64,000 nt of DNA from Candidatus Rifleibacteriota bacterium (GTDB taxonomy: Bacteria > Muiribacteriota > Ozemobacteria > Ozemobacterales > Ozemobacteraceae): assembly GCA_024710525.1 (NCBI GenBank), contig JANJUP010000022.1:192001-256000 (forward strand), in the 5' to 3' direction. A program made the position numbers and the translations under genes. Under the pieces are notes generated by a model, which was given only the letters and a program-made list of their open reading frames with translations, did no database searches and had not been told where the DNA came from. This document shows, in pieces, positions 7,401 to 37,848 of this stretch; position 1 is the stretch's first letter; every line of letters starts with the position of its first letter.

Positions 7401-10400
7401 GGGAGACAGTGATGTATGAGCTCGCAAACGTCTGATCGGTCTGTTTGAATTTAAGGGCCGTCAGATTCAGGTTGCCGCCGTTAAAAATGTTGATTGTCAC
7501 AGTTGCGGTGTTCGAATCGACCGGGTAACCGCCGAGTTCGACCAGGCTGGTGTCTGTATAAACAACCTTGCATTCGCTGGCAACTGCCTCTACCGTGAAT
7601 TCGTAGTATGGCTCGCCCAGGTCTCTGGCGCTGTTGCCCGAAAGATCATCATACACCGCCATTATTGCCGTATAGGTGCCTGCCGGCTGATTGTAGGGTA
7701 TGGTCAGCCCGAAACTGCAGGCAGTTGTCAGGGTTCCGGTTGCGACTGAAAATCCTGATGCCGGTATAAAATCAAAGTAGGCATAGGGAATTTTATCGCC
7801 GCTGGTTGAAGTCGGGTAGGCTTTCTGCCAGAAAACTCTTGAGAGGTGAGTGTTACCATTATTATGCAGCTGAAATGGCCATGCAATCGTGCTGCCGCAG
7901 ACCATGGGCGCAATTTGTATCGGGTCGGGCTGCACTTCAAGGTCACGGAAAAGAATCTGGATGTTATTGCTGGTTGTTGAAGCCAGAGAAACGGTTCTCT
8001 GCGTTTCGGCGTAGGTCGTATTGAGGTCGATGCCGCTTGCCGCAGCCTGCATGGCAAAACTGCTGCCGATTGCGGTAAAGTCGGTTGTCTTGAAAACCCA
8101 GGTAAAAGTGGCCGGATTGCCAAAGCTGACACTCACTGAGGCCGGTGTTGGCCCCGAAACAAGGGTGTTGGCGGCTCCAGTGTAGGTTGGCGCTCGAATC
8201 GGCATGGTCGGTGTCGCAGGATAAATCGTTGAACTGCTGGCAACATTGTTCGTAAGCAACATGGTAACGGTAATATTGTTGCCAAGTTCGAGAGTTGTCG
8301 GAAAAATTGCCAAAGAAGCGGTAAGCTGTCCCTGCGCCTGCACAGTAAAAAACTGTTCGCCCAGATTTTCCTGTCTGTTTCCAGATGGACTCTGTACCTG
8401 CCAGATTCTCAGTCGCCACCGGTCAAGATACTGAGCTCCGGCATCGGTTGGGATTACGAATGAACAAGAGTATTTTCCAGTGGCTGAAGCCTTGCCCACC
8501 CCGGAATCAAAGCGGCCGTCGCCATCTGGGGGCGTGGTTGGGTCGTAGAGGTGGACACTGACATTTGCGTTGGCGGTCAGGCCGGAAAATTCGACAAAAA
8601 TGGTTTGCCCCTGATTATATGTGTATTGTTCAGGAGAAAAAGAGTTGTTGGCGGCGCAGCGGCCGGAAACAGCCTTGATTTCCCAGAAATAGACCGGAGC
8701 GCAGACTGTTGTCGAAGTTGATGCCGGGTTATTGGCTTCGTATGCCGTGAAAGAGGCAGAAGCGTTAACCGCGCCGATAGCAGAAACTGCATCTACAGAA
8801 ACCGTGAAGATTACGTTTAATGTAGAGTTTCCAGCCAGAAGAAAAGGGCTTGTGGTTGGGTTTGTTACGGCCTGGTGATGAGTCCCATTGCTGAATGAGA
8901 GACTGGCGGAGTCTACGTAAACGGCAGCCTCTCCCTGATTTCTTACCTGCATGGTAACACTCAGCCCCGTCTGGTTGCGGTAGACATCGCCGTAGCCTTC
9001 GGTTAATGAAACGATGCTGAGAATTGGCGGGCTTTGAATGAGGCAGAGGCTGCTGGTTTGAGTTGCTGCCGTCAATGAAGTTGAATCGTTAAGGTCATAG
9101 CCATAGCCAGCGCCCTCAAATTCAAATGAGCCAACCGAGGTGGCAGCGAACTGCCAGTTGAAGGTTGTCTGCCCCAGACCGGCTATTGATGAGACTTCTG
9201 GAGTTGGGCCTGAAAGCAGGCCAGCATTGCCGGTCAGGAGCGTCAAAACGCCGGGGAGTGCATCTGTGACAGCCGCACCACCTGAGTTTATGATGGTTGA
9301 GGTGGCTGTGAATGTCTGATTAAGGGTTACGGTTGCCGGCAGCTGGTGCTGTATGGAAATGGCAGCGGGGGTAACCACGTAAAATTGTTTTTCTGCGAGT
9401 GGTGTGCTGTCAATGACTCTTGTGGCGATTACGCGCCAGAGCCCCAGCGGCGAGGCTGCGTCGAGGCTTAACTGGTCGGTCATTATGCCATGCTCGTCTG
9501 TTGTCGACGGCGGGTCTGTAACTTGCACCAGCACGCCGGAAGGGTTATACCAGCGGAACCTTTGCTCGGTAAGAGGCTGCAGGTTTTCAGTTTTTGCATA
9601 AACGATGGTGCTGCCCTGATTGAAACTGTTCGATTCAATTATGTACGAGGGGAATTTTGGCGGGCCCTGATAGGTTTTCATGACGCCGGCGACGACTATC
9701 CAGGTGCCTGGTTCGGTTGCACCGTCATAATTTGTTGAAGGAGTCAGCAGGTTGACATCTCTGAAGGTTATGTCAGCGTCGATGACGCAGGTTCCTGTTG
9801 CCGAAAGGGGGCTGACGTCGACCAGGTAGTGGATGGTTACCGGCAGGCCAGGGTAAACCGCAACCGGAAGGGCATCGACCATGCGTATGTTTTCGTAACT
9901 GCCGAGATTGAACTTGAATGAGGTTGAATCCCAGTAAGCGGCGGCATTTTTGTTGCCGTCATTGATTACTTCGACTGCGATGGAGACATCTTTCTGGGCC
10001 CGGTAAACGGTTTCTGGGGTGGTTATTTTTTGCACCACGAGATTTGCCGGCGAACGGATCAGCCATGAATGGGTCTGTAAAGCCGAGGTGGCGACGATTG
10101 TGCGGGCCGGAACGATCTGAATATTGGTGCCGGTAGCAGTTGCATCGATTACATCGGTGTCTGGAATACTGCCTTCAAGAATGTCCACCGAGAAGGTAAT
10201 CGTTGTGCTGGCTTCACCGGAGATAGTTATTGGCAAAGCGGTCTGCAGGGTTTTATTGTAAGCCCCGATTGCCGGGTCACTGAAGTAAAGGTCGATTTCT
10301 GATAGCTTTGCCGGGGAATAACCGGTGTTTGAAACATATACCTTAACGGGAATTCCGCTCTGACCTATCGTAACGGTTGTGGGAGCAGCTTCGACTTTGG

Positions 10401-11310
10401 TGATTACCAGTTTGGCTGTTTTAAAAACCGCCACTGGCGACAGGGGAGAAACGGCACCGGTCGAATCGACGTCGGCAATTGCATAATAGACCGCGTCGGC
10501 GGCCGGAGGGGTGGGGTCGGTATGATACGAATCATTTGCTGACGAAGTAATGGTCGCTATTTGTGTCCAGGGCCCGTTTTCCGCCAGACTTCGATAAACC
10601 CGATAGGCTGAAAAGGTTACGACTGAAGAACTGCTGTTGTGCCAGTCAAGGTAGCATGCCCCAGAGGTAGTTTCTGATGCGGTCAACCCGGACGGGCTGA
10701 TATTGCAGCTTATTCTGTCGACGCGGCATTCGGCGGTGCTTTTCGGCCCGCAGCCAAGCAACCAGTAAAAATGTATACGATATCTGCTGCCCCCTGGCAG
10801 TGTTGCCGGGAAATTTGAGACGTTCTTCCAGGCGGGGAGGGGATTAGGGGTGGCTGTGCCGGAATTTTGTATGTTCAGAAAAGTGTGCGTCGGGGCTGTC
10901 TCGCTTTCTTTTCGAATGGTTCCGAGGAGGTTGTATTCCCAATTGTTGTCATCAGCGTATTCTCTATAGTATACGCTGATCAATGCATTGGTATCGGATG
11001 CTCTGGCAGCTGCCGGAAAAGTCTGCCAGAGCTCACCATCGGTATAAAGAAATACGTTGGCGCCACCGCCGGCTCCGCGGTCATACAGGCCTCTGAAATA
11101 AGCTCCATCAAGGGTCCCATCGGTGGTATTTCTTGCAAGATTTGTTAACGGGGCTATATCAACCATGGTTTTCTTGGTCCAGCCAGTTTCATTGGTTGTA
11201 AAGCTGCCGTTGGCGATCTGTTCAAGAGCGAAAACGGTCGGAAGTCGGAGCAGGGCCAGGACAAAAAATGACAAAAAAACTGCAATGCATTTTTGCCGAT
11301 GGTTAAGCAT
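4447..11310 (-). CDS. Giant (2287 aa) repetitive secreted/cell-surface protein with multiple Ig-like / CARDB-like beta-sandwich repeats
   Basis: An uninterrupted 6.86 kb ORF with an ATG and GGAGGT RBS. It has a signal peptide (VFLSFFVLALLRLPTVFA). It is Thr/Ser/Asn/Gly-rich with a recurring motif (D/E)DxNxDGxIDAGEAS...T(F/V)xL(K/E)V, for example EDENNNGAIDAGEASATFVLSV, SNPDVIDAGEASCTFMVRF and DDTNNDFLPDPTEASDTVTLEV. I see no sortase, PEP-CTERM or T9SS sorting signal at the C-terminus. Confidence 0.85.
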   Translation of the reverse strand: MLNHRQKCIAVFLSFFVLALLRLPTVFALEQIANGSFTTNETGWTKKTMVDIAPLTNLARNTTDGTLDGAYFRGLYDRGAGGGANVFLYTDGELWQTFPAAARASDTNALISVYYREYADDNNWEYNLLGTIRKESETAPTHTFLNIQNSGTATPNPLPAWKNVSNFPATLPGGSRYRIHFYWLLGCGPKSTAECRVDRISCNISPSGLTASETTSGACYLDWHNSSSSVVTFSAYRVYRSLAENGPWTQIATITSSANDSYHTDPTPPAADAVYYAIADVDSTGAVSPLSPVAVFKTAKLVITKVEAAPTTVTIGQSGIPVKVYVSNTGYSPAKLSEIDLYFSDPAIGAYNKTLQTALPITISGEASTTITFSVDILEGSIPDTDVIDATATGTNIQIVPARTIVATSALQTHSWLIRSPANLVVQKITTPETVYRAQKDVSIAVEVINDGNKNAAAYWDSTSFKFNLGSYENIRMVDALPVAVYPGLPVTIHYLVDVSPLSATGTCVIDADITFRDVNLLTPSTNYDGATEPGTWIVVAGVMKTYQGPPKFPSYIIESNSFNQGSTIVYAKTENLQPLTEQRFRWYNPSGVLVQVTDPPSTTDEHGIMTDQLSLDAASPLGLWRVIATRVIDSTPLAEKQFYVVTPAAISIQHQLPATVTLNQTFTATSTIINSGGAAVTDALPGVLTLLTGNAGLLSGPTPEVSSIAGLGQTTFNWQFAATSVGSFEFEGAGYGYDLNDSTSLTAATQTSSLCLIQSPPILSIVSLTEGYGDVYRNQTGLSVTMQVRNQGEAAVYVDSASLSFSNGTHHQAVTNPTTSPFLLAGNSTLNVIFTVSVDAVSAIGAVNASASFTAYEANNPASTSTTVCAPVYFWEIKAVSGRCAANNSFSPEQYTYNQGQTIFVEFSGLTANANVSVHLYDPTTPPDGDGRFDSGVGKASATGKYSCSFVIPTDAGAQYLDRWRLRIWQVQSPSGNRQENLGEQFFTVQAQGQLTASLAIFPTTLELGNNITVTMLLTNNVASSSTIYPATPTMPIRAPTYTGAANTLVSGPTPASVSVSFGNPATFTWVFKTTDFTAIGSSFAMQAAASGIDLNTTYAETQRTVSLASTTSNNIQILFRDLEVQPDPIQIAPMVCGSTIAWPFQLHNNGNTHLSRVFWQKAYPTSTSGDKIPYAYFDFIPASGFSVATGTLTTACSFGLTIPYNQPAGTYTAIMAVYDDLSGNSARDLGEPYYEFTVEAVASECKVVYTDTSLVELGGYPVDSNTATVTINIFNGGNLNLTALKFKQTDQTFASSYITVSPNPLGALATDGVEIASISAYVGADTVGEHIATFTLWEDTSNPDVIDAGEASCTFMVRFSVGAKDFNITDNPKDLGNATPTFTLTNFNVTITNVGTLDIVNPAAELSDLTQGAYAISQDYLTIEMPPGPILPGAANAKVATISLYIPAGTPVGVFSGLQTVFDDENGDGINNGTANEVAKTFELKVTINPYYSVQVIPSTVDLGGVAPGDPPKSIGFLCRNAGNTDLSNLGWQETTLFDNALQITDDRYAIEPAAFFLTGFGKTFNATVTIELLPAQPPGLYFGNPARLFDNAAISASDTFAITCQVGSKAVDIIEVGPLLATGTPNSTSTSTSYRIKNTGSLILAKPRVIAIENLIEQSDATKFIPKAACIFTPATFDYLSSGQIKTGQVAVQIPAGQTIGTYSCTIRVWDDTNNDFLPDPTEASDTVTLEVRVTGKRVITVSPNPADFFFIPAGQSRSIELTLINAGNIPINNPAEVVKVVKFPLNPVAPGPPSISETQITFNDPLAGSLAVGQTATITVSISVPPGQTAGPYEGYQVIYDDYQTQNNTFDAGAEESHNLLLKLTVGEKKLSVTTPVGLGGGDPSIPGTPTVLSKAFEVKNLTSIPLSKLKWSKTALVSGANTLPVSAFSFLPAGPFNVSSNGTKATSASMTIPMHQLPGSYSGLQTIYEDENNNGAIDAGEASATFVLSVSVNAFPRIEILPSIADLGDVKPGESTLPFDLTINNIGNVDIAGLDTKWTMADLAGPGTIDSSLISFSAIPDPLVVGASTICQVTVGPVDSSQAAGLHTGVQTLEGQTCELQLNVLSSAIGPDLASGSLYQEIATTSFSALAPETVIFSAFVAATGTAAIGFLETLADKTTASYREVSFDFLNKTLSQSGPGIIDAGAVNIAQQDDHTWYRLYITFDYQFVESSASHTFIVLKNATPDATVALASYSVLFDGIQLEKAVIPGQTKPTAYGAKGKLISPSEGTSLDGKTQYYEW

Positions 11311-11992: not shown

Positions 11993-12601
11993 TCAGTCTG
12001 AGTGCAGCTTCTCCTCAAGTTCGCGCAGGCGCTTGAGAATTTCGGTCATTTTGTCGTCATCCCTTTTTGCTGCGCTGCTCTCTGTTTTTTTGGCAGATGC
12101 TTCGTTTGAAGGACCTTGAGGCTGTTGCTGCGGCTGCGCGGCGGGGGTCTGCATAAATGGGTTCATGCCCTGAAAAGGATTCGGCATCTGCATCCAGGGA
12201 TTTTGAAAGGGCATTGATGGCATCGAAGGCATTGACGGCATTGACGGCATTGACGGCATGCCTGGCATGGTCATGCCGGGCATCGAAAATTTGCCATCCT
12301 GGTAATTCTTGTACATGCTCATCATCCAGGGGAAGAACTGCTGGAAAAAATTCTCGATCGCCTCAGGCGGCGACTGCAGCATCATCTGGTAAAAATAGGT
12401 CGGGACCAGTTCATACCGGTCTTCAAGCATGACCTGCATGAGAATGTATTTGGTGATGTCTTTTCCGGTGGTTTTTTCGACAACCTTGACCTTGTCGCCG
12501 CGCTGCAGAAAATCACGGATCTCGGTCAGTGAAACATAACGGGCTTCTTCGACACAGTATAAACGACGATTGTCGTATTTTTTAATCAGAATTTCTTTCA
12601 C
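11993..12601 (-). CDS. PhaR-like (PHB/PHA accumulation regulator DNA-binding domain) protein with a C-terminal (MPS)n / Pro-Met-rich low-complexity tail
   Basis: The N-terminus IKKYDNRRLYCVEEARYVSLTEIRDFL matches the PHB_acc_N / PhaR consensus (IKKY.NRRLY...YV.L.D). GTG start at 12601 with GAGG 9 nt upstream. The tail is PGMTMPGMPSMPSMPSMPSMPSMPF followed by a Q-rich stretch. Confidence 0.6.
   Translation of the reverse strand: MKEILIKKYDNRRLYCVEEARYVSLTEIRDFLQRGDKVKVVEKTTGKDITKYILMQVMLEDRYELVPTYFYQMMLQSPPEAIENFFQQFFPWMMSMYKNYQDGKFSMPGMTMPGMPSMPSMPSMPSMPSMPFQNPWMQMPNPFQGMNPFMQTPAAQPQQQPQGPSNEASAKKTESSAAKRDDDKMTEILKRLRELEEKLHSD
12201..12300 (-). repeat. Coding tandem repeat, 9-bp unit (ggcattgac), about 3 perfect copies plus degenerate copies, encoding (MPS)n
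   Basis: The sequence ggcattgacggcattgacggcattgacggcatgcctggcatggtcatgccgggcat lies inside the PhaR-like ORF. It is a microsatellite-like stretch that could vary in length. Confidence 0.6.
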
Positions 12602-14200: not shown

Positions 14201-16204
14201 ATGGCTGAGGTAAAACGTATGCAGCAATTTTTAACGGCAATTCTGGTGATAACCTGCGGCGGTCTGCTGGCATGGCTTACGGGCAGACTCAAGACTCTGT
14301 CCGCCGCTGTTGGCACCGGTTCATGCATTGGCGGGGCCGCTCTTGCCCTGATACCGGTAACGGAAATTCTTGTATCCGGCGGGCAGACTGCAGAAATGGT
14401 ATTCAATCTGCCCCTGGGTGCAGCTACCCTTAAACTTGACACTGTTTCGGCCTTTTTTTCGTTGCCGGTAATCGTTCTCGGAGCTCTTTCTGCCATATAT
14501 GCCGCCGCAACCTGCCACCACGATAAACATGAATGCGGGGGATACTGGTTCTTTTACTGCCTGTTGATGGCTTCAATGCTCTTTTTGACCGCCTCAGCCA
14601 ATGCCATACTTTTTCTCATGGCCTGGGAAATAATGTCGGTCGCGGCATTCTTCCTGATTATCCACAGAGATGAGATCGCCTCGGCCAGAAACGCCGCCTG
14701 GCGATTTCTCGTGGCCAGTCACGTCGGAACCGCCGGCCTGTTTATCATGTTTGCCGTTATCAGTTCGCAGTGCGGTTCTTTCGAGTTCGCCAGTTTTACC
14801 AGAACCCCCGTTTCGGCTGAAACCGCCTCGCTGGTTTTCTTTCTTGCCCTGTTCGGGTTCGGGGTCAAAGTTGGTCTGCTGCCTCTGCATGTCTGGATGC
14901 CTGATTCATATGCATTTGCCGATGCCCACGTCTCAGCCGTGCTTTCCGGGGCGATGAGCAAAATGGGGTTTTACGGCCTGGTCAGAGTTCTGATGCTTCT
15001 GCCGGTTCATGCGCCATCATGGGGCTGGGCGCTTGCCTTCGGCGGCCTGCTTACCGGTGTTTTCGCTCTCATCACCGCTCTCGCACAGCATGACCTCAAA
15101 AAGGTAATTGCTTACAGCAGTATGGAAAACGCCGGTATTATCATGATGGGCCTTGGCTGCGCCGTTCTTGCCGGCATCTGGAAAGTGCCGTCGCTGGCTT
15201 TTGCTGCGCTGGCCGGGGCGTTGCTGCATGTTCTCAATCATGCGGCATGCAAGGGTCTTCTTTTTCTCGGCTCTGGCGCCGTCTACTTCGGCACCGGAAC
15301 CAGGAAACTCGAAGCAATGGGCGGCCTCGCGAAAACCATGCCATATACCGCGCTGTTTTTCGGCATTGGCGCTGCGGCTATTTCAGGTCTGCCACCTTTT
15401 AACAGCTTTATCAGTGAATTTATGATTTTTCTTTCCGGTCTGCAGGCAGCCCGACTCGGAACCTCATCTGCTCTGCTGCTTGCCGGCGTAATACTTGCCG
15501 GGCTAGGCTTGATCGGCGGTCTGGCAATGGCGACCTTTTCGCGAACTTTCGGCCTGGTTTTTCTCGGAGCTTCACGCAGTGATAAAAAAGTTGAACCGAG
15601 AGAGTCCGGCTGGCTTGCCAGATTGCCAATGGCCATTCTCGTGCTGGCAATTTTCCTGCTTTCGCTGTTTTCGCCATTTATACTCATTCCGGTAACGCGC
15701 GTTGCCTCGACGATTGCCGCTGCCTCAGGCACAATATTCACTCAGGAAAGCGCGATGCTCAATATTCAACCGGTAACGGTCAGCGCCGCGGTATCATTCT
15801 TTCTGGCACTGTTTGTTGTGCTTTTCTGGCTGATCCGCAGCCGGTTTTTCAGTGCCGGCGACATTGACAACCGCTGCACCTGGGATTGCGGTTTTGCTGC
15901 CCCGGATTCCCGCATTCAGTATACCTCTTCTTCATTTTCGCAACCGGTCAGCGAGGTTTTTTCGAGTATTGTCAGGCCTTATCGCCATGGCGAAAAGGTC
16001 GCCGGCTTTTTCCCGGCGCACGCAAGCTTCAGAACAGACGCTCCTGACTCTCTGCTGCGTTATTTGTATATTCCATTGTTTGGCCTTATTGACCGGGCGA
16101 TGGTGCCCCTGCGCGCCCTTCAACACGGACGCCTGCATCTCTACATCTGTTATCTGGCAATTGTTCTTCTTGCACTCCTGATCTGGAAGGTGGTGGCAGC
16201 ATGA
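14201..16204 (+). CDS. NuoL/HyfB-like antiporter-type membrane subunit of a complex-I / group-4 hydrogenase-related (Ehr-type) complex
   Basis: 667 aa with about 16 TM segments. It carries the conserved Mrp/NuoL antiporter-like core (e.g. WMPDSYAFADAHVSAVLSGAMSKMGFYGL). It is the first gene of a translationally coupled operon. Confidence 0.85.
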   Translation: MAEVKRMQQFLTAILVITCGGLLAWLTGRLKTLSAAVGTGSCIGGAALALIPVTEILVSGGQTAEMVFNLPLGAATLKLDTVSAFFSLPVIVLGALSAIYAAATCHHDKHECGGYWFFYCLLMASMLFLTASANAILFLMAWEIMSVAAFFLIIHRDEIASARNAAWRFLVASHVGTAGLFIMFAVISSQCGSFEFASFTRTPVSAETASLVFFLALFGFGVKVGLLPLHVWMPDSYAFADAHVSAVLSGAMSKMGFYGLVRVLMLLPVHAPSWGWALAFGGLLTGVFALITALAQHDLKKVIAYSSMENAGIIMMGLGCAVLAGIWKVPSLAFAALAGALLHVLNHAACKGLLFLGSGAVYFGTGTRKLEAMGGLAKTMPYTALFFGIGAAAISGLPPFNSFISEFMIFLSGLQAARLGTSSALLLAGVILAGLGLIGGLAMATFSRTFGLVFLGASRSDKKVEPRESGWLARLPMAILVLAIFLLSLFSPFILIPVTRVASTIAAASGTIFTQESAMLNIQPVTVSAAVSFFLALFVVLFWLIRSRFFSAGDIDNRCTWDCGFAAPDSRIQYTSSSFSQPVSEVFSSIVRPYRHGEKVAGFFPAHASFRTDAPDSLLRYLYIPLFGLIDRAMVPLRALQHGRLHLYICYLAIVLLALLIWKVVAA

Positions 16205-17121
16205 TCAGCATTCATTCTGTCGTATTTTTTATTCTCACTCTTCTGCTTGCACCGATCCTGCCAGGTGTCATCAACAAGGTAAAAGCCTTCTTTGGCGGCA
16301 AAATGGGGCCGCCCGTTCTGCAGCTCTATTACGATATTGCCAAGCTGATGAGAAAATCCGCGACCTACAGCCAGACTTCAAGCCTGGTCACACGACTCGC
16401 GCCTGTCGTGATCTTTTTTTCGACTCTCGGTGCCGGCCTGTTTGTGCCTTCTTTTTTCAGGGAAGCAAGTTGCCGCTTTGCTGGCGATGTGGTTCTGATG
16501 GCCTATCTGCTGGGTATCGGCCGCTTCTTTATGGTTATTGCCGCCATGGACCGCGGTTCGGCCTTTGAAGGAATGGGCGCCAGCCGCGAAGTTCTCTACA
16601 GTGCTCTGGCCGAACCAGCCTTTTTCTGCGGTCTGCTTGTATTGATCAATGAAACTGGCGATCTGAGTCTTTCCGGAATTTTCAACGGGCTTTCGCTCGA
16701 ACTCTGGCGGCAGAACCCGGCCATAATGCTGCTGATTGCGGTGAGCTGGATGATAGTCCTGCTGACTGAAAATGCGCGAATCCCGGTCGATGACCCGAAC
16801 ACCCACCTTGAACTGACCATGATTCATGAAGTAATGATTCTCGACTACAGCAGTAAAGATCTCGGGTTGATCGAATACGCTTCTGCCCTCAAACTCTGGT
16901 TGTTTTCGAGTCTGCTGGTCGGTCTGATTATCAGCGCCGGGGCAGTTCCGCCATATCTTCATATTCCGGTATTCCTGTTCGGAATACTCGCGGTCGCGGT
17001 CGTTATTGGCTGCGTCGAATCGACCATTGCCCGCCTCAGGCTGATTCATATTCCAAAATTCATCGTCGGTTCTGGCGCTCTGGCCATAATCGCCCTGATT
17101 CTGAAAATTGCAGGGAACTGA
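16201..17121 (+). CDS. NuoH/HycD-like membrane subunit
   Basis: 306 aa with about 8 TM segments. The start overlaps the upstream stop (ATGA). Resembles the HycD/NuoH family. Confidence 0.85.
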   Translation: MISIHSVVFFILTLLLAPILPGVINKVKAFFGGKMGPPVLQLYYDIAKLMRKSATYSQTSSLVTRLAPVVIFFSTLGAGLFVPSFFREASCRFAGDVVLMAYLLGIGRFFMVIAAMDRGSAFEGMGASREVLYSALAEPAFFCGLLVLINETGDLSLSGIFNGLSLELWRQNPAIMLLIAVSWMIVLLTENARIPVDDPNTHLELTMIHEVMILDYSSKDLGLIEYASALKLWLFSSLLVGLIISAGAVPPYLHIPVFLFGILAVAVVIGCVESTIARLRLIHIPKFIVGSGALAIIALILKIAGN

Positions 17122-17126
17122 AAACC

Positions 17127-17801
17127 ATGAACAGTATAGCCACACTTCTTGCCTTGTCATGTATTTTTCTGCTCGGTTCGAGCCGGTTGCTGATGTCGAT
17201 CAGAATGGTCGCTTTTCAGGGGCTGCTGCTGGGTATCCTGCCACTGGCCGCCGCCGGTGACGGCCATCTGTCGCTGGCTCTTATTTTTCTGTCGCTCGCC
17301 AGCATTGCGTTGAAAAGCATTCTGCTGCCCTGGCTGCTGAACAAGGCCATGGTCGATTCAGGCACCCGCCGAGAGATCGAGCCATTCATCAGCTTCGGCG
17401 CCTCGATGCTGCTCGGGCTTTTTCTGCTTGCCGTGTCTGGCTGGATCGTCGACAAGCTTCAGGCAACCGAGCCGGTGCCTTCGCCGGTTACCCTGATTGC
17501 AGGGTTTTATCTGGTTTTTTCGGGTCTGCTGCTGCTGATAACAAGACGCAAAGCGCTCACCCAGACCCTTGGCTTTCTTGTTCTCGAAAACGGGGTTTTT
17601 ACTGCCGGTCTCAGCCTTGGCAGCGAGTTCTCGGTGATGGTTGAACTGGGCATTCTGCTTGACGTCTTTGTCGGCATTTTCCTGATGGGTATCATGCTTT
17701 TTCATATTGACCGCGAATTCGACCACCTCGATGCCGACCGTTTCAATGAACTGTCTGACCTCGAAATTGCCGCTTCGCCCGATGAGGAGGTAGCAGAATG
17801 A
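17127..17801 (+). CDS. HyfE/NuoK-like small membrane subunit
   Basis: 224 aa with about 6 TM segments. Its position and size match hydrogenase-4 component E-like subunits. There is an acidic C-terminal tail. Confidence 0.7.
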   Translation: MNSIATLLALSCIFLLGSSRLLMSIRMVAFQGLLLGILPLAAAGDGHLSLALIFLSLASIALKSILLPWLLNKAMVDSGTRREIEPFISFGASMLLGLFLLAVSGWIVDKLQATEPVPSPVTLIAGFYLVFSGLLLLITRRKALTQTLGFLVLENGVFTAGLSLGSEFSVMVELGILLDVFVGIFLMGIMLFHIDREFDHLDADRFNELSDLEIAASPDEEVAE

Positions 17802-19366
17802 ATACCGCCTGGGCCCTGATCATTCTGCCGGCTGTTACCGGCCTGTGTTCTCTTTTCATCGATTCGGAAAGGCTCCGCAAAAATCTGCTGGTCGTCGTTG
17901 CCTTTCTGCACCTCTATATGTCTTTGCAGCTTTGCAACGGCTCTGCTGGCGAACTTGACGGTGTCTGGCTCGGTGTCGACCATCTTACCAGAATCTTTCT
18001 TACCCTCACCAGTCTTCTGTTTACCGGCTCAGCCGTTTACTCGATGATTTACCTCGACAAACACCCGCATGCCGACGGCGCCGATCTTGCCGGCTGGCAG
18101 TTCTTGCGCAACCGCAATGCGATTTTTGTCGCCTGCATGCAGCTGTTTCTTGCGGCAATGAGCCTGGCGATTCTCAGTATGCATTTCGGCCTGCAGTGGA
18201 TCGGCATTGAAGCTACAACTCTTGCCAGCACACCCCTGATTTACTATCATCGCAACCGCCGCTCCCTCGAAGCCGCCTGGAAATACATGATCATCTGCTC
18301 GGTCGGCATTGCTCTCGCTCTGATGGGCGTCTTTTTTCTGGCCAAAACGACGACCCAGCATGTTCAGCTCTTTACGCCCGCCGGCCTGGTGCTGTTTGCC
18401 GGTTATCTCAAGCTTGGCTGGCTGAAGGTTGCCTTCATTTTCTTTCTCGTTGGTTATGGCACCAAAATGGGCCTGGCGCCGATGCATACCTGGCTGCCCG
18501 ACGCACACAGCGAAGCCCCTTCTCCAGTTTCAGCGATGCTCTCCGGCGCCCTGCTCAATTGCGCTTTTCTCGGTATTCTCAGAATCTACCAGGTCTGCGT
18601 CGCAATTCCGGCCACTGCTGCCTTTGCCTCAGAACTGCTGATCATTGCCGGCCTCGTTTCGATGGGATTCTCGGGCATTTTTATCATGCATCAGCCAGAC
18701 TATAAAAGAATGCTTGCCTATTCGAGCGTTGAACACATGGGTATTCTTGCCACCGGTATCGGCCTTGGCGGTTCTGCCATCGCCGGCGCTCTTCTGCATG
18801 CAATCTGCCATTCACTGATCAAGGCCCCGATGTTTTTGCTCGCCGGCAACATTCTTTCGGCCTTCAATACAAAAAAAGTCGAAGAAGTCTCCGGCCTGCT
18901 CAAATCTATGCCGTTCACCGGCATGCTCTGGCTTGCAGGCTTTTTAGCGATCACCGGCACCCCGCCATTCGGAACTTTCATCAGTGAATTTTCGATTCTC
19001 AAGGCAGCACTGCAGACCCGCAGCTGGACAACAGCGGGCCTCTATCTCCTCTTCCTTCTGATTGTTTTTATCGGCATGCTGACGATTGTCATGCAGATGA
19101 CTCTCGGCCGCCGCCCTGATGACCACGCCGATGAACACCATCATCATAACCCAGCCGCAAAAGACCATGAACAGAAGCACGAGAAACATCATAAACATGA
19201 TGCTGCGTCAGCGGTTTCCGGTTCTGTGATCGATGAAGATCTTCTGCAGATTATGACGCCGGTTATATTCCTGTCTCTGGCTCTAATCCTTGGTTTCTAC
19301 CTGCCCGAATACGTAAGGCAGGCGATCAATGGTGGCGCCCTGCTGCTCGGAGGTGCAATACTGTGA
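17798..19366 (+). CDS. NuoM/NuoN/HyfF-like antiporter-type membrane subunit with a His-rich C-proximal insertion
   Basis: 522 aa. It has antiporter-like core motifs (GTKMGLAPMHTWLPDAHSEAPSPVSAMLSGALL). A His-rich segment DDHADEHHHHNPAAKDHEQKHEKHHKHD sits near the C-terminus. GAGGAGG RBS, and the start overlaps the upstream stop. Confidence 0.85.
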   Translation: MNTAWALIILPAVTGLCSLFIDSERLRKNLLVVVAFLHLYMSLQLCNGSAGELDGVWLGVDHLTRIFLTLTSLLFTGSAVYSMIYLDKHPHADGADLAGWQFLRNRNAIFVACMQLFLAAMSLAILSMHFGLQWIGIEATTLASTPLIYYHRNRRSLEAAWKYMIICSVGIALALMGVFFLAKTTTQHVQLFTPAGLVLFAGYLKLGWLKVAFIFFLVGYGTKMGLAPMHTWLPDAHSEAPSPVSAMLSGALLNCAFLGILRIYQVCVAIPATAAFASELLIIAGLVSMGFSGIFIMHQPDYKRMLAYSSVEHMGILATGIGLGGSAIAGALLHAICHSLIKAPMFLLAGNILSAFNTKKVEEVSGLLKSMPFTGMLWLAGFLAITGTPPFGTFISEFSILKAALQTRSWTTAGLYLLFLLIVFIGMLTIVMQMTLGRRPDDHADEHHHHNPAAKDHEQKHEKHHKHDAASAVSGSVIDEDLLQIMTPVIFLSLALILGFYLPEYVRQAINGGALLLGGAIL

Positions 19367-20856
19367 AAAATACTCTGTTGCTGAAAAATGGCAGTTCTGC
19401 AAAACTCGAAAATGTTCCGGTAATTGAGGCTGAAGGCTTTCGCAAGCACCTGACCGTGCAGATTCAGAAAGGCGGTCGCCTGTCGGCGCTCTTCCTGGTT
19501 CCTGGCGACTCCCAGGCAAGCCTTTTTGCGATTGTTTCGCACGACCACACCAGCGAACTCGAAGTATTTTCCTGCCTCTGCGGCCGTAAATTCAACGCTC
19601 TGACCCCAATTCTGCCACAGGCTCACTGGTTCGAAAGAGAAATCGCCGAAATTCACGGCATTGAAATGGTCGGGCACCCCTGGATGAAGCCGATCCGCTT
19701 TCAGCCAAAAGCCGGGCAGAACGTTGAGATCATTCCCGGTGCCACCAGCTATTTCGAAGTTAAGGGCGAAGAGGTGCACGAGGTCGGTGTCGGACCGGTG
19801 CATGCCGGTATCATCGAACCCGGCCATTTTCGTTTTCAATGCCACGGAGAAAAGGTTTTTCATCTGGAAATCGAACTGGGATACCAGCACCGCGGTATCG
19901 AAAGGGCGATTCCCGTCTCTCAACCTCAGAAAGTTATCAGGCTTATGGAAACGGCAGCCGGCGATACCAGTATCGGTCACGCTACCGCCTATGCCATGAA
20001 TGTCGAAGCGCTCGCCGGGCTGAAGTTGAGCCAGAATGCGGCAATTATCCGCAGCGTCGCTCTCGAACTCGAACGCATGGCCAATCATACCGGCGATCTG
20101 GGTGCGCTCGCCGGCGATGTCGGCTTTCTGCCGACGGCGGCTTACTGCGGTCGTATCAGAGGCGATATTCTCAATACCACCGGCCTGATCTGCGGCAATC
20201 GCTTTGGCCGCGGCCTGATCAGAACTGGCGGCGTCGGTTACGAAATCGACGCCGAACTGAAAAAGGCGATTCTCGATAAACTGGCGCTTGTCGAAGCCGA
20301 CCTGCGTTCGGCTATCAACCTCATCTGGGATACCCCTTCGGTTGTGTCACGATTTGAAGAAACCGGTCTCGTCAGCCGGGAAGACGCGATCGCCGCTGGG
20401 CTGGTCGGCCCCGCTGCCCGTGCCTGCGGTGTCTCGATTGACATCCGCCTTTCGCACGCCTTTGCCGCCTACGGCAGAATTAAGCCTGAACTGGCGCTCG
20501 GCCGTCAGGGCGATGTTAACGGCCGGGCCACGGTGCGCTGGCTCGAAATTCAGGATTCGCTGTGCCTCATTCGAGCCATGCTCGAAGAACTTTCTGCTGA
20601 AAAAGCCGGCTGCAGTATGCCGAAGGCTGAACTGGCACCGGATTCATTGGCCGTCAGTCTTGCCGAAGGCTGGCGTGGCGAAATCTGCCATGTTGCCATT
20701 ACTGACAGCAAAGGTAATCTTAAAAGCTATAAAATCGTTGACCCCTCATTTCATAACTGGTTTGGCCTGGCTCTGGCATTGAGAAACCAGGAAATCTCAG
20801 ACTTTCCGCTCTGCAATAAGAGTTTCAACCTCTCTTACTGCGGCCACGACCTGTGA
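19363..20856 (+). CDS. Fused NuoC-NuoD / HycE-like large subunit that lacks the NiFe-ligating cysteines (Ehr large subunit-like)
   Basis: The conserved GPVHAGIIEPGHFRF...GEKV.HLE..LGY.HRGIE block is present. The position of the N-terminal R-x-C-G-x-C-xxxH motif reads ETAAGDTSIGHATAY, with no Cys. The C-terminal DPCxxCxxH/R position reads VDPSFHNWFG, with no Cys. GTG start overlapping the upstream stop, with GGAGGT RBS. Confidence 0.85.
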   Translation: MKNTLLLKNGSSAKLENVPVIEAEGFRKHLTVQIQKGGRLSALFLVPGDSQASLFAIVSHDHTSELEVFSCLCGRKFNALTPILPQAHWFEREIAEIHGIEMVGHPWMKPIRFQPKAGQNVEIIPGATSYFEVKGEEVHEVGVGPVHAGIIEPGHFRFQCHGEKVFHLEIELGYQHRGIERAIPVSQPQKVIRLMETAAGDTSIGHATAYAMNVEALAGLKLSQNAAIIRSVALELERMANHTGDLGALAGDVGFLPTAAYCGRIRGDILNTTGLICGNRFGRGLIRTGGVGYEIDAELKKAILDKLALVEADLRSAINLIWDTPSVVSRFEETGLVSREDAIAAGLVGPAARACGVSIDIRLSHAFAAYGRIKPELALGRQGDVNGRATVRWLEIQDSLCLIRAMLEELSAEKAGCSMPKAELAPDSLAVSLAEGWRGEICHVAITDSKGNLKSYKIVDPSFHNWFGLALALRNQEISDFPLCNKSFNLSYCGHDL

Positions 20857-20864
20857 GGTGAAAT

Positions 20865-21623
20865 ATGTTTCAAATTCTTAAAGCCAGATTACATCAGGGT
20901 TATCGCACTTTTCCGTTCCCCGAAAAGCAGCCGCCCATGGCCCCCCGCTATGCCGGCCGCCCGAAAATTCTGCCGGGCAGCTGCAAAGGCGACTGTGCCG
21001 CCTGCGTCGGTGTCTGTCCGACCGGCGCTCTGTCACGCGGTGCCGGCAACCGCCCGGTAATCGATCTCGGCCGCTGTATCTTCTGCCGCGCCTGTGAAGA
21101 AGCCTGCGCCGAAAAGCTCATCAGTTTTACCCAGGAATTCTCGATGGCCGCCAATTCAAAAGAGGCGCTCGTCATAGCCGATGAAAAATTCAAACAGGCC
21201 GAAGCAATGGGCAATGAACTGCGCCGCCTGTTCGGCAGATCGCTCAAACTGCGCCAGGTCAGTGCCGGCGGCTGCAACGCCTGCGAAGCCGATACCAACG
21301 TGCTTGGAACCCCGAATTTTGACCTGGCGCGCTTTGGCATTCAGTTTGTCGCTTCGCCAAGACATGCCGACGGCCTGCTGATAACCGGCCCGGTGAGCCA
21401 GAACATGAAGCTCGCCATGCAGAAAACTTACGAAGCGTTGCCTTCGCCGTCAATTGTGATTGCTGTCGGCGCCTGTGCCGTTTCAGGCGGTCTGTTCAAG
21501 GGTAACAGTGAAGTCAATGATGGTGCCGCCGGTATTGTGCCCGTCGACCTTTTTGTGCCTGGTTGCCCGCCGCATCCCTGGACAATTCTCGAAGGTATTT
21601 TACGGTTTATGGGGCGCTTATAA
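20865..21623 (+). CDS. Fused 2x[4Fe-4S] ferredoxin (HycF/NuoI-like) plus NuoB/HycG-like small subunit
   Basis: The N-terminal part has CKGDCAACVGVCP and CIFCRACEEAC ferredoxin motifs. The C-terminal NuoB-like domain keeps the proximal-cluster ligands (GGCNACE, GACAVSGG, PGCPPHP). GAGGTG RBS. Confidence 0.85.
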   Translation: MFQILKARLHQGYRTFPFPEKQPPMAPRYAGRPKILPGSCKGDCAACVGVCPTGALSRGAGNRPVIDLGRCIFCRACEEACAEKLISFTQEFSMAANSKEALVIADEKFKQAEAMGNELRRLFGRSLKLRQVSAGGCNACEADTNVLGTPNFDLARFGIQFVASPRHADGLLITGPVSQNMKLAMQKTYEALPSPSIVIAVGACAVSGGLFKGNSEVNDGAAGIVPVDLFVPGCPPHPWTILEGILRFMGRL

Positions 21624-21682
21624 ATCTGCCAGGCTTGCAAAATGCAAGAAAAGGTTGATAAGATGATGGCAGGAGAATAAAA

Positions 21683-24184
21683 ATGCCGATAAAACCCAAA
21701 AATGCCGCCAAAAAGCGCTATTATTGCCTGAAAATAGCCGTCATTTTTTTGCTTTGTTTCTCTGCACAAACCTTTTCACAGACTATTGATCTTTCTCAGT
21801 TTATCGGGCCGCTGCCGATTCCGATTCCGTCAATGCAGGCCTCAACGACTATTCAGGAAGACTTTTCTGAATCGATGGCCGAGATTCTGCCAAAGGCCGA
21901 AGCTCTGAAAGACGAGGCCGGAAAACTGGCAGAGACGGTTGCAGCTGTTGTCGACATCGATAATCTTCAGTCAGAGCATCAACTGCAGCAAAAGCGTCTG
22001 CAAACCAATCGTGATTCACTCCGCGAAATTATTGAATCCGGAACCTATGGTTTCGAGAACGTCTCTTCTTTGCGAAGCGAAACCAGAGCGCTGATCGATG
22101 CGGTAAGTCGCCATGCCCGATATATTGCTGAAAAACTCGTTAAGGTCGAGAGCCTGAAGCAGACCTGGGCAGCAAAAGAAGCTGGCTGGCAAAACCAGCA
22201 GAATTCTAAAGAAATAAATCTTAATGAGGCACTGCGCAACGTCTTTAAAGAGGCTCTGGTAGTTACAGGCAATGCCCGCAAAAGTCTTGAAGGGGTCGAA
22301 GGCCCGCTGGTGGCCTTTCAGCAGAAAGTTGTCGAACTGCAGCGTCAGTCGCAGCAGCAGCTCGAAGACATCGACAAGCTCATGGCCGAGATGCGCAAGG
22401 ATCTTTTCCGAAAATCGCGGCCAGCCATGTTTACGCCAACCTTCATCCTGCAGTTTGACCGCACCCTCTGGGAAGACTTCTGGATTGGCATTGCCAGTTT
22501 TGAGTTGCCTGACCGCAGGTTTTTTCAGACTTCAGGCTGGATATTCTTTCTGCAGCTGATTCTGATCGGCGGCTTTCTCTATTTCCTGCGCACCTGGAAA
22601 AATCGCAATCTTGAAGCGTTCAAACTCGGTTTTATTATCAATCGCTACTGGTCTACGGCCGTTTTTCTCGGTATTCTTCTGCCTTTGCCACTTTTCGATA
22701 CTGTTCCGAAGCTGTTTAAGCTTTTTTATGCCGGCATTCTAACTGTCACCGCCTCGCGGGTGGTTGGCGGCGTGATCGATCTGCCCTGGCGCCGCCGGCT
22801 TCTCTACATAATTGTCGCTCTTTACCTGACTATTCAGTTCTTTACCTTCATTGCTCTGCCGGCCCCGGCACTTCGCCTCTTCATCGCGATTGTCGGTTTT
22901 GCCGGTGCCCTGTTGTGTTCGTGGCGGGCTCGCGTCAATGAGGCAGAAGGCCGTTCGCTGACTTTTATCATTGGTGTTAAACTCGGTGGAGCCTCGCTTG
23001 CACTTGTCTTTCTGTCTCAGGTCGCCGGTTATGTCGCGTTTGCCAACCATCTTCTCGACGTGACCATCAAAACCGTTTTTCTTGGCGTCATTGCCTGGAT
23101 GATCGACCTGATATTGCGCGGCGTCATCGACTTTATTTTCGATAATGGCCTGGTGCGGCGCTACGAGCTGATTAATCGCCACTACCGTCTTTTTATTGGG
23201 CGTGCCACCATGATCGTCGACTCAGCGGTTGTGTTTGTGGCTTTTGCTGCGATGATATCGGTCTGGGGCTTTTTCGACAGTACTCTGCTTGCGGTTGAGA
23301 GAATTCTTGCCTTCGGGTTTTCTCTGCAGGGTTACCGGATATCGTTTGGCATGTTTATCTGGGCCGTTGTTCTTGTATATGCATCACTCTCCGTCTCGTG
23401 GCTGATTCAGAATATTCTGATCGAAGAGGTTTACCCGCGCCGCAAAGTCGAAAAAGGCGTCGGTATTTCGATCAATCGCCTGATCCATTATGCCTTTGTT
23501 ATCTTCGGCGTTGTTTTTGGGCTTTCTGCAATCGGGATAGACCTTCAGAGTCTGACTGTCGTAATCGGGGCGCTGGGTATCGGTATCGGTTTCGGTCTGC
23601 AGAACATCGTTAACAATTTTGCCAGCGGTCTGATTCTTCTCTTTGAACGGTCGATAAAGGTCGGCGATATCGTTCAGATCAGAGGTGACTGGGGGACAAT
23701 CAAGAACCTCGGTCTGCGCGCCACCGTCGTCGAAACATTCGACCGATCAGAGATGATCGTGCCCAACAGCGATCTTGTCTCTTCGACCGTCACCAACTGG
23801 ACCCTCTCCGACCGTCAGACCCGCCTGATCATAAAAATTGGTGTTGCCTACGGCTCTGATGTTCAGAAAGTCACCCGGATTCTTCTGGGCATTGCCCAGG
23901 AAAACCCCTTTGTCATGAAGTTTCCCGAACCGGCGGTCTTTTTTATGAACTTTGGCAGCAGCTCTCTCGATTTTGAATTGCGTACCTGGGTTGCCGACAT
24001 CGATATCAGGCTTAAAACCATGAACCAGATCAATTATGAGATCGAAAGGCTCTTTCGCGAAAATGGTATCGAAATTCCTTTCCCGCAACAGGATCTTCAT
24101 ATAAAATCCGTAGACGATTCCGTAAAAAACATGCTCAGCGGCACGCAGATCAAACCTGCCGTTGATAAAACAGAGGTAAAATGA
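21683..24184 (+). CDS. MscS-family mechanosensitive channel, MscK/KefA-like, with a large N-terminal periplasmic coiled-coil domain
   Basis: 833 aa. A signal peptide is followed by a Q/E-rich coiled-coil region, then about 11 TM segments and a C-terminal MscS core (GDIVQIRGDWGTIKNLGLRATVVETFDRSEMIVPNSDL). AGGAGA RBS. Confidence 0.8.
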   Translation: MPIKPKNAAKKRYYCLKIAVIFLLCFSAQTFSQTIDLSQFIGPLPIPIPSMQASTTIQEDFSESMAEILPKAEALKDEAGKLAETVAAVVDIDNLQSEHQLQQKRLQTNRDSLREIIESGTYGFENVSSLRSETRALIDAVSRHARYIAEKLVKVESLKQTWAAKEAGWQNQQNSKEINLNEALRNVFKEALVVTGNARKSLEGVEGPLVAFQQKVVELQRQSQQQLEDIDKLMAEMRKDLFRKSRPAMFTPTFILQFDRTLWEDFWIGIASFELPDRRFFQTSGWIFFLQLILIGGFLYFLRTWKNRNLEAFKLGFIINRYWSTAVFLGILLPLPLFDTVPKLFKLFYAGILTVTASRVVGGVIDLPWRRRLLYIIVALYLTIQFFTFIALPAPALRLFIAIVGFAGALLCSWRARVNEAEGRSLTFIIGVKLGGASLALVFLSQVAGYVAFANHLLDVTIKTVFLGVIAWMIDLILRGVIDFIFDNGLVRRYELINRHYRLFIGRATMIVDSAVVFVAFAAMISVWGFFDSTLLAVERILAFGFSLQGYRISFGMFIWAVVLVYASLSVSWLIQNILIEEVYPRRKVEKGVGISINRLIHYAFVIFGVVFGLSAIGIDLQSLTVVIGALGIGIGFGLQNIVNNFASGLILLFERSIKVGDIVQIRGDWGTIKNLGLRATVVETFDRSEMIVPNSDLVSSTVTNWTLSDRQTRLIIKIGVAYGSDVQKVTRILLGIAQENPFVMKFPEPAVFFMNFGSSSLDFELRTWVADIDIRLKTMNQINYEIERLFRENGIEIPFPQQDLHIKSVDDSVKNMLSGTQIKPAVDKTEVK

Positions 24185-30152: not shown

Positions 30153-30424
30153 CGTCTTCCCTTAACCTTGAAATATTTGCTCAATTATACCGCCGAAACG
30201 TCGTTTCTGCAGTATTTTTTTAGCCTTGCAGGCACCCGGGCACTTCTTACTGCAACTTTTCAGCTTTTTCCAGATGACAAGTTCACCAATATGCCTATAT
30301 ACTCATGGTAGATACAGTAAATAAAGATTCTGGTTTTCGGTCATGCCTGAGAGAGTTTGTTCCCCTGCGTTGTGTTTCACCGCAGATATATGACCACATT
30401 CGGCCTGGTTGGAGAGAAACAGAC

Positions 30425-32146: not shown

Positions 32147-32181
32147 AAACCGAGAGTTGATCGGCGCTTTCGAGAAAACCG

Positions 32182-34687: not shown

Positions 34688-34690
34688 TGT

Positions 34691-35962: not shown

Positions 35963-36003
35963 TTACTGATTCCTTTCCCTGTTGGGGCACTTTGTGAGGT
36001 GTC

Positions 36004-37047: not shown

Positions 37048-37164
37048 TTCTCCTTGCGTATGTTGATTTTATGAAGACTTTGCTATGTACAAAACAGAAC
37101 CTTGCTCAGCTATGATAGCAGCAAATATTCAACTTACCAACCGGGAATTTTTCAACCCCCGGGC

Positions 37165-37830: not shown

Positions 37831-37848
37831 CTTGTTGCTCCTTGCCCG

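Follow-up and report, generated by a model that had tools for sequence, protein, structure and literature searches.

Does a membrane complex that is assembled from the parts of a group-4 [NiFe] hydrogenase still handle hydrogen when the cysteines of its metal site have been replaced, and if not, what might it do instead? The question is raised by a six-gene operon at positions 14201-21623, on the plus strand, of a 64,000-nt stretch of DNA from a Candidatus Rifleibacteriota bacterium (assembly GCA_024710525.1, contig JANJUP010000022.1), referred to here as the window. An earlier note, made from the letters and their open reading frames (ORFs), had read the six-subunit set as an energy-converting hydrogenase related (Ehr) complex. 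The loss of the NiFe ligands, a gene order matching that of Geobacter and a set of shared motifs support this identification, and we consider it very probable that the operon encodes an Ehr complex that is functional and is not a hydrogenase. The Ehr family has been known since 2005 and 2013 and appears in numerous genome papers, the Ehr of Geobacter having reportedly been treated by Coppi in 2005, and the window locus adds another instance. Papers published between 2012 and 2025 describe Ehr as group-4-like membrane complexes without CxxC motifs that were first seen in Geobacter, and assign them no function. Marreiros and colleagues are cited as having suggested in 2013 that Ehr stands between group-4 hydrogenases and complex I, and the Nitrospira Ehr has been placed outside the HydDB hydrogenase groups, next to group 4f (PMC10284858).

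The evidence that carries this reading lies in the large subunit, EhrL (19363..20856, plus strand; 497 aa from a GTG start), a fused NuoC and NuoD/HycE-like protein that matches PF00329 and PF00346 and gave no match to PF00374 in the Pfam search. Its best matches in the Protein Data Bank (PDB) are HycE (1.9e-37), MbhL (8.9e-36), Nqo4 (1.6e-28) and MbsL (4.5e-16), and it can be aligned with HycE and MbhL across GPVHAGIIEPGHFRF, around which the earlier note had proposed an alignment to HycE/EchE. The columns of the NiFe ligands were located with HMMER alignments to HycE, MbhL and Nqo4 and, independently, by aligning EhrL with E. coli HycE, HyfG and NuoCD in MAFFT. At the first ligand motif (L1, RxCGxCxxxH) EhrL carries ‘ETAAGDTSIGH’ (residues 196-206; 19948..19980, plus strand), which aligns on HycE ‘DRVCGICGFAH’ with Ala199 and Thr202 in place of the two cysteines and Thr197 in place of the arginine. 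Both alignments agree on this replacement, which had been seen correctly from the letters, and its pattern, E..[AS]GD[ST][ST].[GA]H, holds across 240 EhrL homologues. The second motif (L2, DPCxxCxx[HR]) had been placed at ‘DPSFHNW’, a conserved stretch (residues 460-466; 20740..20760, plus strand) that in fact aligns with HycE ‘AATYANW’ and NuoCD ‘TPSFAHL’, about 25 residues upstream of L2. The true L2 counterpart in the MAFFT alignment is the C-terminus of EhrL, ‘CNKSFNLSYCGHDL’ (20812..20853, plus strand), whose last nine residues, ‘NLSYCGHDL’ (489-497), align with HycE ‘DPCYSCTDR’ and place Ser491 and Gly494 at the cysteine positions. Because of these two residues the conclusion that the NiFe ligands are gone survives, though for another L2 stretch than the one first named. 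None of the four ligand positions (A199, T202, S491 and G494) holds a cysteine, in the window or across the 240 homologues; what has to be added to the claim that all NiFe cysteines are lost is that a clade-conserved cysteine, Cys493, stands one residue before the second L2 position.

The machinery that would mature a NiFe site is missing from the window and from related loci as well. EhrL ends at the column of HycE Arg537, where NuoCD also ends, and as we take this position to be the HycI cleavage site of HycE, EhrL has no C-terminal extension to process. The hyp and formate dehydrogenase genes that the earlier note had proposed to look for were not found within the 64-kb window, and neither was any hycI, hycH, molybdopterin, nuoEFG or second hydrogenase gene. 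For a broader view, a collection holding one genome per species was used, in which at least 600 stretches came up, 597 of them confirmed as encoding a relative, which we take to mean at least roughly 600 species; synteny and flanks were analyzed in the best 80 of these at least 597 loci, with 10 kb on either side. Searches of the 80 loci with E. coli queries (tblastn) yielded no HypA-E, HycI, HycH, HycB, HyfA, HyfJ or NuoE/F/G outside of the operon itself. Both routes by which group-4 maturation could be recognized, Hyp genes or an endopeptidase paired with a C-terminal extension, are therefore missing from the window and from the 80 loci, and the partners of a formate hydrogenlyase (FHL) are missing likewise, with no FdhF or other Fdh in the window and no HycB/HyfA at any locus.

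These observations bear directly on the idea that Ehr is a cryptic hydrogenase in which Cys493, Asp201, His206 and other residues hold an unconventional metal site. Such a site was considered because Cys493 is clade-conserved and lies next to a former ligand position; it would also suit the retention of a proton-gate-type Glu152 in ‘IEPGHF’, of Arg438 in ‘WRGE’ and of the three-cluster wire described below. This candidate site, and the reach of the window search, which covered 64 kb of the genome, weigh against the non-hydrogenase reading. Set against the cryptic hydrogenase are the four ligand positions without cysteine, the lack of hyp or protease genes linked to ehr in the window or the 80 loci, the lack of a C-terminal extension, and the substitution of Cys493 by Ser in paralogous Ehr-like operons. 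In addition, Nitrospira moscoviensis shows no induction of Ehr by H2, and Mycobacterium tuberculosis retains an Ehr-type complex without any hyp genes. We regard a cryptic hydrogenase built on such a site as very improbable; an unconventional metal site in EhrL as such is conceivable, as judged from its residues.

What has replaced the NiFe site varies little across the family. The replacement motifs AGDT[ST][IV]GH and FPLCNKSFNLSYCG.DL, which can also be written E..AGDT[ST].GH and NKSFNLSYCG.DL, are nearly invariant, and ‘FPLCNKSFNLSYCGHDL’ is identical in 116 of the 120 top homologues, with ‘CG[FY]DL’ as the version of the Geobacter clade. Upstream, the hydrogenase-type beta1-beta2 loop region ‘VGPVHAGIIEPGHFRFQC’ (19789..19842, plus strand) aligns with HycE ‘IGPLHVTSDEPGHFRLFV’ and retains the hydrogenase-type ‘IEPGHFRF’; it is invariant in 17 of 17 sequences and at least 95% conserved among 61. 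An AlphaFold2 model of the EhrL monomer (ma282b4a5e2d8), with a predicted local distance difference test score (pLDDT) of 79 and a predicted template modelling score of 0.85, has HycE as its best fold match (7z0s_E, TM 0.82). Three further positions of EhrL can be compared with complex I: the position of the quinone head-group ligand Tyr87 of Thermus thermophilus Nqo4 is an invariant Gly200, that of the other such ligand, His38, is Ile/Val151, and Nqo4 Asp139 is retained as an invariant Asp252. Six cysteines of EhrL (160, 262, 277, 442, 484 and 493) are invariant within the clade of the window. A metal or disulfide site formed by Cys484, Cys493 and His495 was considered and is weakened, as the Geobacter clade has Phe/Tyr in place of His495 and, in some of its sequences, Ile in place of Cys484, and as Ser takes the place of Cys493 in the paralogous operons. 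The latter lie beside the main operon at two loci (L024:13437-20566 and L061:2535-9950); their large subunits, which are 33-37% identical to the window EhrL, have the motifs ‘SGD[TS][TS]VAH’ and ‘NKSFN[AL]SYSG.D[LR]’, have GD[ST][ST] and NKSFN.SY.G.D in common with the main clade, and lack both the NiFe cysteines and the clade-specific ones (C493 is Ser, C442 is Val/Phe and C160 is Ala/Val).

The path that leads electrons to this site appears to be intact. The small subunit, EhrS (20865..21623, plus strand; 252 aa), is a fusion of a HycF/NuoI-like domain for two [4Fe-4S] clusters with a HycG/MbhJ/NuoB-like domain for one (Fer4 and PF01058, the latter at 2.9e-27). The ferredoxin-type domain carries cysteines 40, 44, 47, 51 and 71, 74, 77, 81 (nt 20976-21110). 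In the NuoB-like domain C137, C140, C204 and C234 (nt 21258-21578) correspond to the ligands of the proximal cluster in MbhJ and HycG, so the earlier statement that this domain keeps its [4Fe-4S] ligands holds. EhrS contains exactly 12 cysteines, all of which are kept in 46 orthologues, a number that suits three [4Fe-4S] clusters. The proximal motif is of the hydrogenase type, with the CxxC...C...CP arrangement of group-4 small subunits, as opposed to the tandem CC of complex I, and the PDB matches have the same flavor (MbhJ 2.3e-33, HycG 3.7e-29, HycF 3.1e-12 and MbsJ 1.5e-16). By its sequence EhrS keeps a three-cluster wire, with two clusters in the HycF/NuoI-like half and the third in the NuoB-like half.

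The membrane arm likewise keeps residues of antiporter-type ion channels. EhrA (14201..16204, plus strand; 667 aa), a HyfB/HycC/NuoL-like antiporter-type subunit (PF00361, 2.7e-48; best PDB matches HycC 1.1e-50 and MbhH 5.6e-45), has a Glu in transmembrane helix (TM) 5 (AWE143) and Lys residues in TM7 (GFGVK223), TM8 (SK254) and TM12 (ACK351), all kept in 48 orthologues. EhrD (17798..19366, plus strand; 522 aa), the second antiporter-type subunit, is HyfF/NuoM/N-like (PF00361, 1.4e-51); of the residues of such channels it retains the Glu in TM5 and the Lys in TM7 and in TM12. It also carries a lineage-specific His-rich insertion, ‘GRRPDDHADEHHHHNPAAKDHEQKHEKHHKHDAA’ (residues 437-470; nt 19106-19207), which is missing from 33 of 33 aligned orthologues and is possibly a metal-binding loop. 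EhrB (16201..17121, plus strand; 306 aa) is a HycD/HyfC/NuoH-like subunit (PF00146, 4.6e-31) that matches HycD (4e-25), MbhM (2e-18) and MbsM (3e-8); no NuoH chain of complex I was found at 1e-5 or better in the PDB search, nor any NuoH by BLAST. Its acidic loop ‘EN.RIP.DDP.THLELTMIHE’ is kept in 39 orthologues. EhrC (17127..17801, plus strand; 224 aa) is a small HyfE-like subunit (PRK11492 at 3.1e-18, below the cut-off, and a weak PF00420 match) without a PDB relative by sequence, whose conserved acidic residues, in ENG and E..LLD, are membrane carboxylates. Judged by these residues, the EhrA-B-C-D arm probably retains antiporter-type Glu/Lys channels.

The operon is compact, as the earlier note had stated: the six plus-strand genes, for proteins of 667, 306, 224, 522, 497 and 252 aa in order, overlap by 4 nt at three junctions (ATGA at 16201, ATGA at 17798 and GTGA at 19363) and are separated by 5 and 8 nt at the other two. 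Pfam and NCBIfam profiles, PDB sequence searches and BLASTP against E. coli K-12 proteins gave the same families that the earlier note had assigned (PF00361, PF00146, HyfE-like, PF00361, PF00329 with PF00346, and Fer4 with PF01058). The mislabelling that it had foreseen is also real. The best NCBIfam matches are ‘hydrogenase 4 subunit B/F’, all NCBIfam matches being under the curated cut-offs, while EhrL homologues are called ‘Ni,Fe-hydrogenase III large subunit’ by JGI and ‘NADH-quinone oxidoreductase subunit C’ or ‘hydrogenase’ by NCBI.

How the complex relates to its better known relatives can be read from its subunits, which are homologous throughout to those of group-4 [NiFe] hydrogenases and complex I (large, small, NuoH-like and antiporter-like). 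Against E. coli, the best match of every subunit is its Hyf/Hyc counterpart rather than Nuo, at 28-42% identity (HyfB 34%, HycD/HyfC 29-31%, HyfE 28%, HyfF 42%, HyfG/HycE 28%, HyfI/HycG 42% and HycF 34%). The order of the genes is collinear with hyfB-C-E-F-G-(H+I), HycE is the best match of EhrL in both sequence and fold, and the ‘EPGHFR’ loop and the small-subunit CxxC are held in common with Hyf and Hyc (PDB 7Z0S). In contrast to these, the window complex has all four NiFe cysteines replaced, has no C-terminal extension, lacks HycI/Hyp, HycB/HyfA, HyfD, HyfJ and an FdhF partner, and has HyfH and HyfI fused. With the membrane-bound hydrogenase (MBH) of Pyrococcus furiosus (PDB 6CFW) and with Ech it shares a putatively ferredoxin-accepting peripheral module (NuoI-like 2x[4Fe-4S] plus a NuoB-like cluster), an MbhM/NuoH-like membrane anchor and an MbhH-like antiporter subunit, whereas the NiFe site and the Mrp-type small subunits are missing and its large antiporter-like subunits, two in number, are Hyf-like. 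Complex I (NDH-1) has homologous NuoB, C, D, H, I and L/M/N folds, and EhrL ends as NuoCD does and keeps Asp139; however, the Tyr87 and His38 ligands, the tandem cysteines, the NuoA/J/K set as such and NuoEFG are all missing, EhrB has no detectable likeness to NuoH apart from the shared Pfam family, and six genes stand in place of the 11-subunit core (NuoA, B, C, D, H, I, J, K, L, M and N).

The closest likeness is to the Ehr of Geobacter, the cluster for which the name was coined; in all comparisons G. pickeringii and other Geobacter species stood in as proxies for the G. sulfurreducens PCA sequences. The EhrL of G. sulfurreducens was not among the top 120 matches of a second protein search. 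Orthology and synteny were found in Geobacteraceae, Geomonas, Pelobacter and G. pickeringii. The complete G. pickeringii genome has a divergent A2 copy followed by A1-B-C-D-L-S, and membership of the window operon in Ehr is supported through these proxies because this layout fits the published Geobacter gene list of GSU0739, 0740, 0741, 0742, 0743, 0745 and possibly GSU0734 (PMC4667449). Window and Geobacter share the same six subunit types in A-B-C-D-L-S order, the fused NuoC-NuoD form of EhrL (the window protein being about 49-50% identical to its orthologues in G. grbiciae, G. pickeringii and other Geobacter species), the E..AGDT[ST]IGH and C-terminal motifs, and the ferredoxin-NuoB fusion. 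They differ in that the window has one EhrA copy while Geobacter has a second, divergently placed one, in the residue after CG (His in the window, Phe/Tyr in the Geobacter clade), in the His-rich insertion of EhrD, and in a regulator gene, treated below, that is missing near the window operon.

Could this be the debris of a hydrogenase? A 2026 study states as much for Geobacter KN400, describing Ehr as a decayed, non-functional remnant (PMC13194489), and the loss of the NiFe ligands and the missense mutations accumulated by two ehr genes in long-term culture on electrodes can be counted in its favor. The family as a whole has a different appearance. EhrL relatives number at least in the thousands among the matches listed in the protein search. 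The top 120 are at least 54% identical and come from many phyla, among them Riflebacteria, Sumerlaeia, Cloacimonadota, Thermoanaerobaculia, Nitrospirota, NC10, Elusimicrobia and Syntrophobacterales; the 80 loci add Geobacteraceae, Geomonas, Pelobacter, Geothrix, Desulfogranum, Desulfomicrobium, Verrucomicrobia, Planctomycetes, Spirochaetota, Omnitrophota and others. EhrL identity across phyla is 46-57%, with invariant motifs at the former active site, and the A-B-C-D-L-S order is kept in essentially all of the 80 loci, many of which have a second A copy upstream. The exact EhrL protein of the window is also encoded on contig JANJVH010000136.1 (assembly GCA_024710195.1), and near-identical proteins carry the name Candidatus Rifleibacterium sp. 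Between two near-identical strains, the codon differences across the operon are 52 synonymous against 13 nonsynonymous, seven of the latter in EhrD. From the near-invariance of the motifs, the 46-57% identity, the synteny and the 52:13 ratio, this is the pattern of purifying selection on a working complex, functional rather than decayed, as far as it can be judged from sequence, and it argues against the non-functional view. Six intact, translationally coupled ORFs and the detection and regulation of Ehr protein in G. sulfurreducens proteomes point in the same direction, and we consider a decayed remnant extremely unlikely.

The flanks of the 80 loci were then a natural place to seek a conserved redox partner. 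Clustering of their ORFs gave no Fdh, NuoEF, Hyp or sulfur genes and returned only an extra EhrA copy and a regulator gene. This sole recurrent neighbor of the operon encodes a protein of about 235 aa with a helix-turn-helix (HTH) domain, HTH_17, and PTS_EIIA_2; it is present at 44 of the 80 loci in more than 10 phyla, usually directly upstream of ehrA (for example L005:4203-4913, L056:4351-5013 and L016:1508-2200), and was not found in the window. Its recurrence suggests that ehr is under the control of the nitrogen-type phosphotransferase system (PTS), and no mention of such a regulator beside ehr was found in the literature searched.

This neighbor also features in the proposal that Ehr is not a redox enzyme at all but an Mrp-like cation/proton antiporter or ion pump regulated by the nitrogen-type PTS, with iron-sulfur clusters that are structural or redox-sensing. 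Two antiporter-like subunits together with HyfE- and NuoH-like ones would fit, as would a regulator adjoining the operon in more than half of the loci, given that EIIA-Ntr proteins regulate K+ transport, and in the window a mechanosensitive channel gene follows the operon. That channel gene is not a recurrent neighbor, however, the strict conservation of the 12 cluster cysteines and of the wire geometry is hard to explain without electron transfer, and the most conserved part of the complex is the EhrL pocket. We therefore rate an antiporter or pump without redox function as improbable.

With an Ehr complex that is probably functional and not a hydrogenase, the question becomes what reaction the wire, the pocket and the membrane arm could serve together. 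By analogy with Ech, MBH and FHL, a low-potential soluble donor, most likely ferredoxin, would dock on the HycF-like domain of EhrS, and its electrons would pass along the three clusters and reach the remodelled pocket where EhrL, EhrS and EhrB meet. There, in what appears to be an almost invariant polar pocket that replaces the NiFe site in an FHL/MBH-type EhrL, an acceptor other than H+ would be reduced. The reduction would drive H+ or Na+ translocation through EhrB-C-D-A, or be driven by translocation in reverse. Taken by itself, we give this ferredoxin-linked ion-pump mechanism an even chance. Several points weigh against it. Donor, acceptor, direction and pumped ion are all assigned by analogy, and the model of EhrL has a pLDDT below 50 in the very segments that form the pocket (128-173 and 477-497), and likewise in 109-119; the first two, which include the most conserved segments of EhrL, presumably fold only against EhrS and EhrB. 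As for the acceptor, menaquinone would be the leading candidate, with a soluble acceptor about as plausible.

With menaquinone as acceptor, Ehr would be a ferredoxin:menaquinone oxidoreductase, a minimal enzyme resembling complex I, NDH-1 or Fpo that reduces quinone at the EhrL/EhrS/EhrB junction and pumps ions; Nitrospira and other autotrophs would use it in reverse, with the ion gradient driving the reduction of ferredoxin from quinol. Most of the named carriers are respiratory groups, some of them aerobes, and Geobacter, Geothrix, Desulfovibrionaceae, Planctomycetes and Verrucomicrobia are menaquinone-containing respiratory groups. The invariant Asp252, an intermediate place between group-4 hydrogenases and complex I (reportedly proposed by Marreiros 2013), the presence of Ehr in about half of the Nitrospirales genomes, and the rise of Ehr subunits in formate-grown G. 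sulfurreducens are also consistent with it. Neither the formate response nor the response to H2 identifies the Ehr reaction. The quinone idea meets resistance at the site itself, where both canonical head-group ligands are gone (Tyr87 to Gly200 and His38 to Ile151), at EhrB, which resembles HycD and MbhM rather than NuoH, and at EhrS, where CxxC stands instead of the tandem cysteines of cluster N2. Some lineages with an Ehr-type complex, the Riflemargulisbacteria, are moreover reported to lack quinone synthesis (PMC6349859). On balance, menaquinone reduction is a possibility that we hold tentatively.

A second way to fill the pocket is with a soluble, non-proton acceptor such as sulfane sulfur or polysulfide, a disulfide or a small oxidant, which Ehr would reduce with electrons from ferredoxin in a cytoplasm-facing pocket of Asp, Thr, Ser, Asn, Lys, Tyr and Cys residues. 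A precedent exists in MBS/Mbx, a group-4 relative that has ceased to make H2 and couples ferredoxin oxidation to ion translocation, and so shows that a member of this group can switch substrate. The FHL/MBH-type architecture of EhrL and its beta1-beta2 loop would favor such a chamber, since FHL and MBH have a substrate chamber and not a lipid tunnel, and the replacement residues are polar and nearly invariant, and the six cysteines are invariant within the clade. Kinship to MBS itself is nonetheless remote: among the solved relatives of EhrL, MbsL stands farthest away (4.5e-16 as against 1.9e-37 for HycE), MbsM (3e-8) and MbsJ (1.5e-16) are distant as well (PDB 6U8Y), and the subunit set differs, with no Mrp small subunits and nothing like the 13-subunit Mrp-containing operon. 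The clade cysteines are lost in the paralogues and Cys484 and His495 vary in the Geobacter clade, as given above, and no sulfur-metabolism genes are linked in the flanks of the 80 loci. A soluble acceptor of this kind seems to us rather doubtful.

Beyond both of these acceptors lies the broader suggestion that a new catalytic site, fed by the three-cluster wire, has arisen on the old NiFe scaffold and would reduce a substrate new to the superfamily or, in reverse, ferredoxin, with expression tied in most lineages to the nitrogen-type PTS through the HTH-EIIA regulator. Its candidate residues, picked by their conservation, are Glu196, Asp201, Thr202, Ser/Thr203, His206, Asn485, Lys486, Ser487, Asn489, Ser491 and Tyr492, together with cysteines 160, 262, 277, 442, 484 and 493. 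We put this forward as a speculative and, on present estimates, unlikely reading.

The surroundings of the operon in the window were also recorded. Scanning for promoters and terminators did not reveal convincing boundaries of the operon, and no terminator-like site was found after ehrS in the 59-nt gap (21624-21682) before the MscK-like channel gene (21683-24184), so that co-transcription with the channel gene is possible; the pairing of the two genes does not recur in other genomes. Upstream and divergent lie genes for a lipase-like DUF7379 protein and a PhaR-like regulator. The latter (11993-12601, minus strand) has a PHB_acc_N domain, a Met/Pro/Ser repeat, ‘MPGMPSMPSMPSMPSMPSMP’, and a Gln/Pro-rich tail. 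The MscK-like, PhaR-like and lipase-like genes were dropped as functional clues because they do not recur near ehr. Elsewhere in the window, a 2287-aa ORF (4447-11310, minus strand), which has a sub-threshold Ig-like (HYDIN/VesB) Pfam match alone, probably encodes a giant surface protein, and a 513-aa protein with a spermidine-synthase domain adjoins two DUF4178 proteins (52933-56915, minus strand). Farther downstream lies a cluster of the lysine-fermentation type (27808-40691, mostly minus strand) with B12-dependent aminomutase subunits (OAM_dimer/B12-binding, 27808-28596, and Lys-AminoMut_A, 28593-30152), lysine 2,3-aminomutase (34691-35962) and a beta-keto acid cleavage enzyme (38536-39360), as well as MutS_V-like, zinc-type dehydrogenase, CoA-transferase A/B and class-III aminotransferase genes. 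Speculatively, this pathway would yield reduced ferredoxin or NADH for an Ehr-like complex to reoxidize.

The window locus itself gives no fresh handle on the substrate. What stands out is the near-invariance of the replacement pocket, together with six cysteines that are peculiar to the clade and an HTH-EIIA regulator that recurs beside the operon; the nearly invariant motifs, the intact wire and channels and the regulator gene are concrete targets for mutagenesis and regulation work in tractable hosts such as Geobacter. As annotation pipelines label Ehr genes as subunits of hydrogenase-4, hydrogenase-3, CO-induced hydrogenase or NADH dehydrogenase subunit C, H2 or formate metabolism can be wrongly inferred for Riflebacteria and many other phyla. 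The complex is strongly conserved and widespread, in at least 597 stretches, yet the papers published up to 2025 give it no function, and if the reading of a new catalytic site should be true, Ehr would be a widespread, unrecognized node over the ferredoxin pool in anaerobes and aerobes alike.

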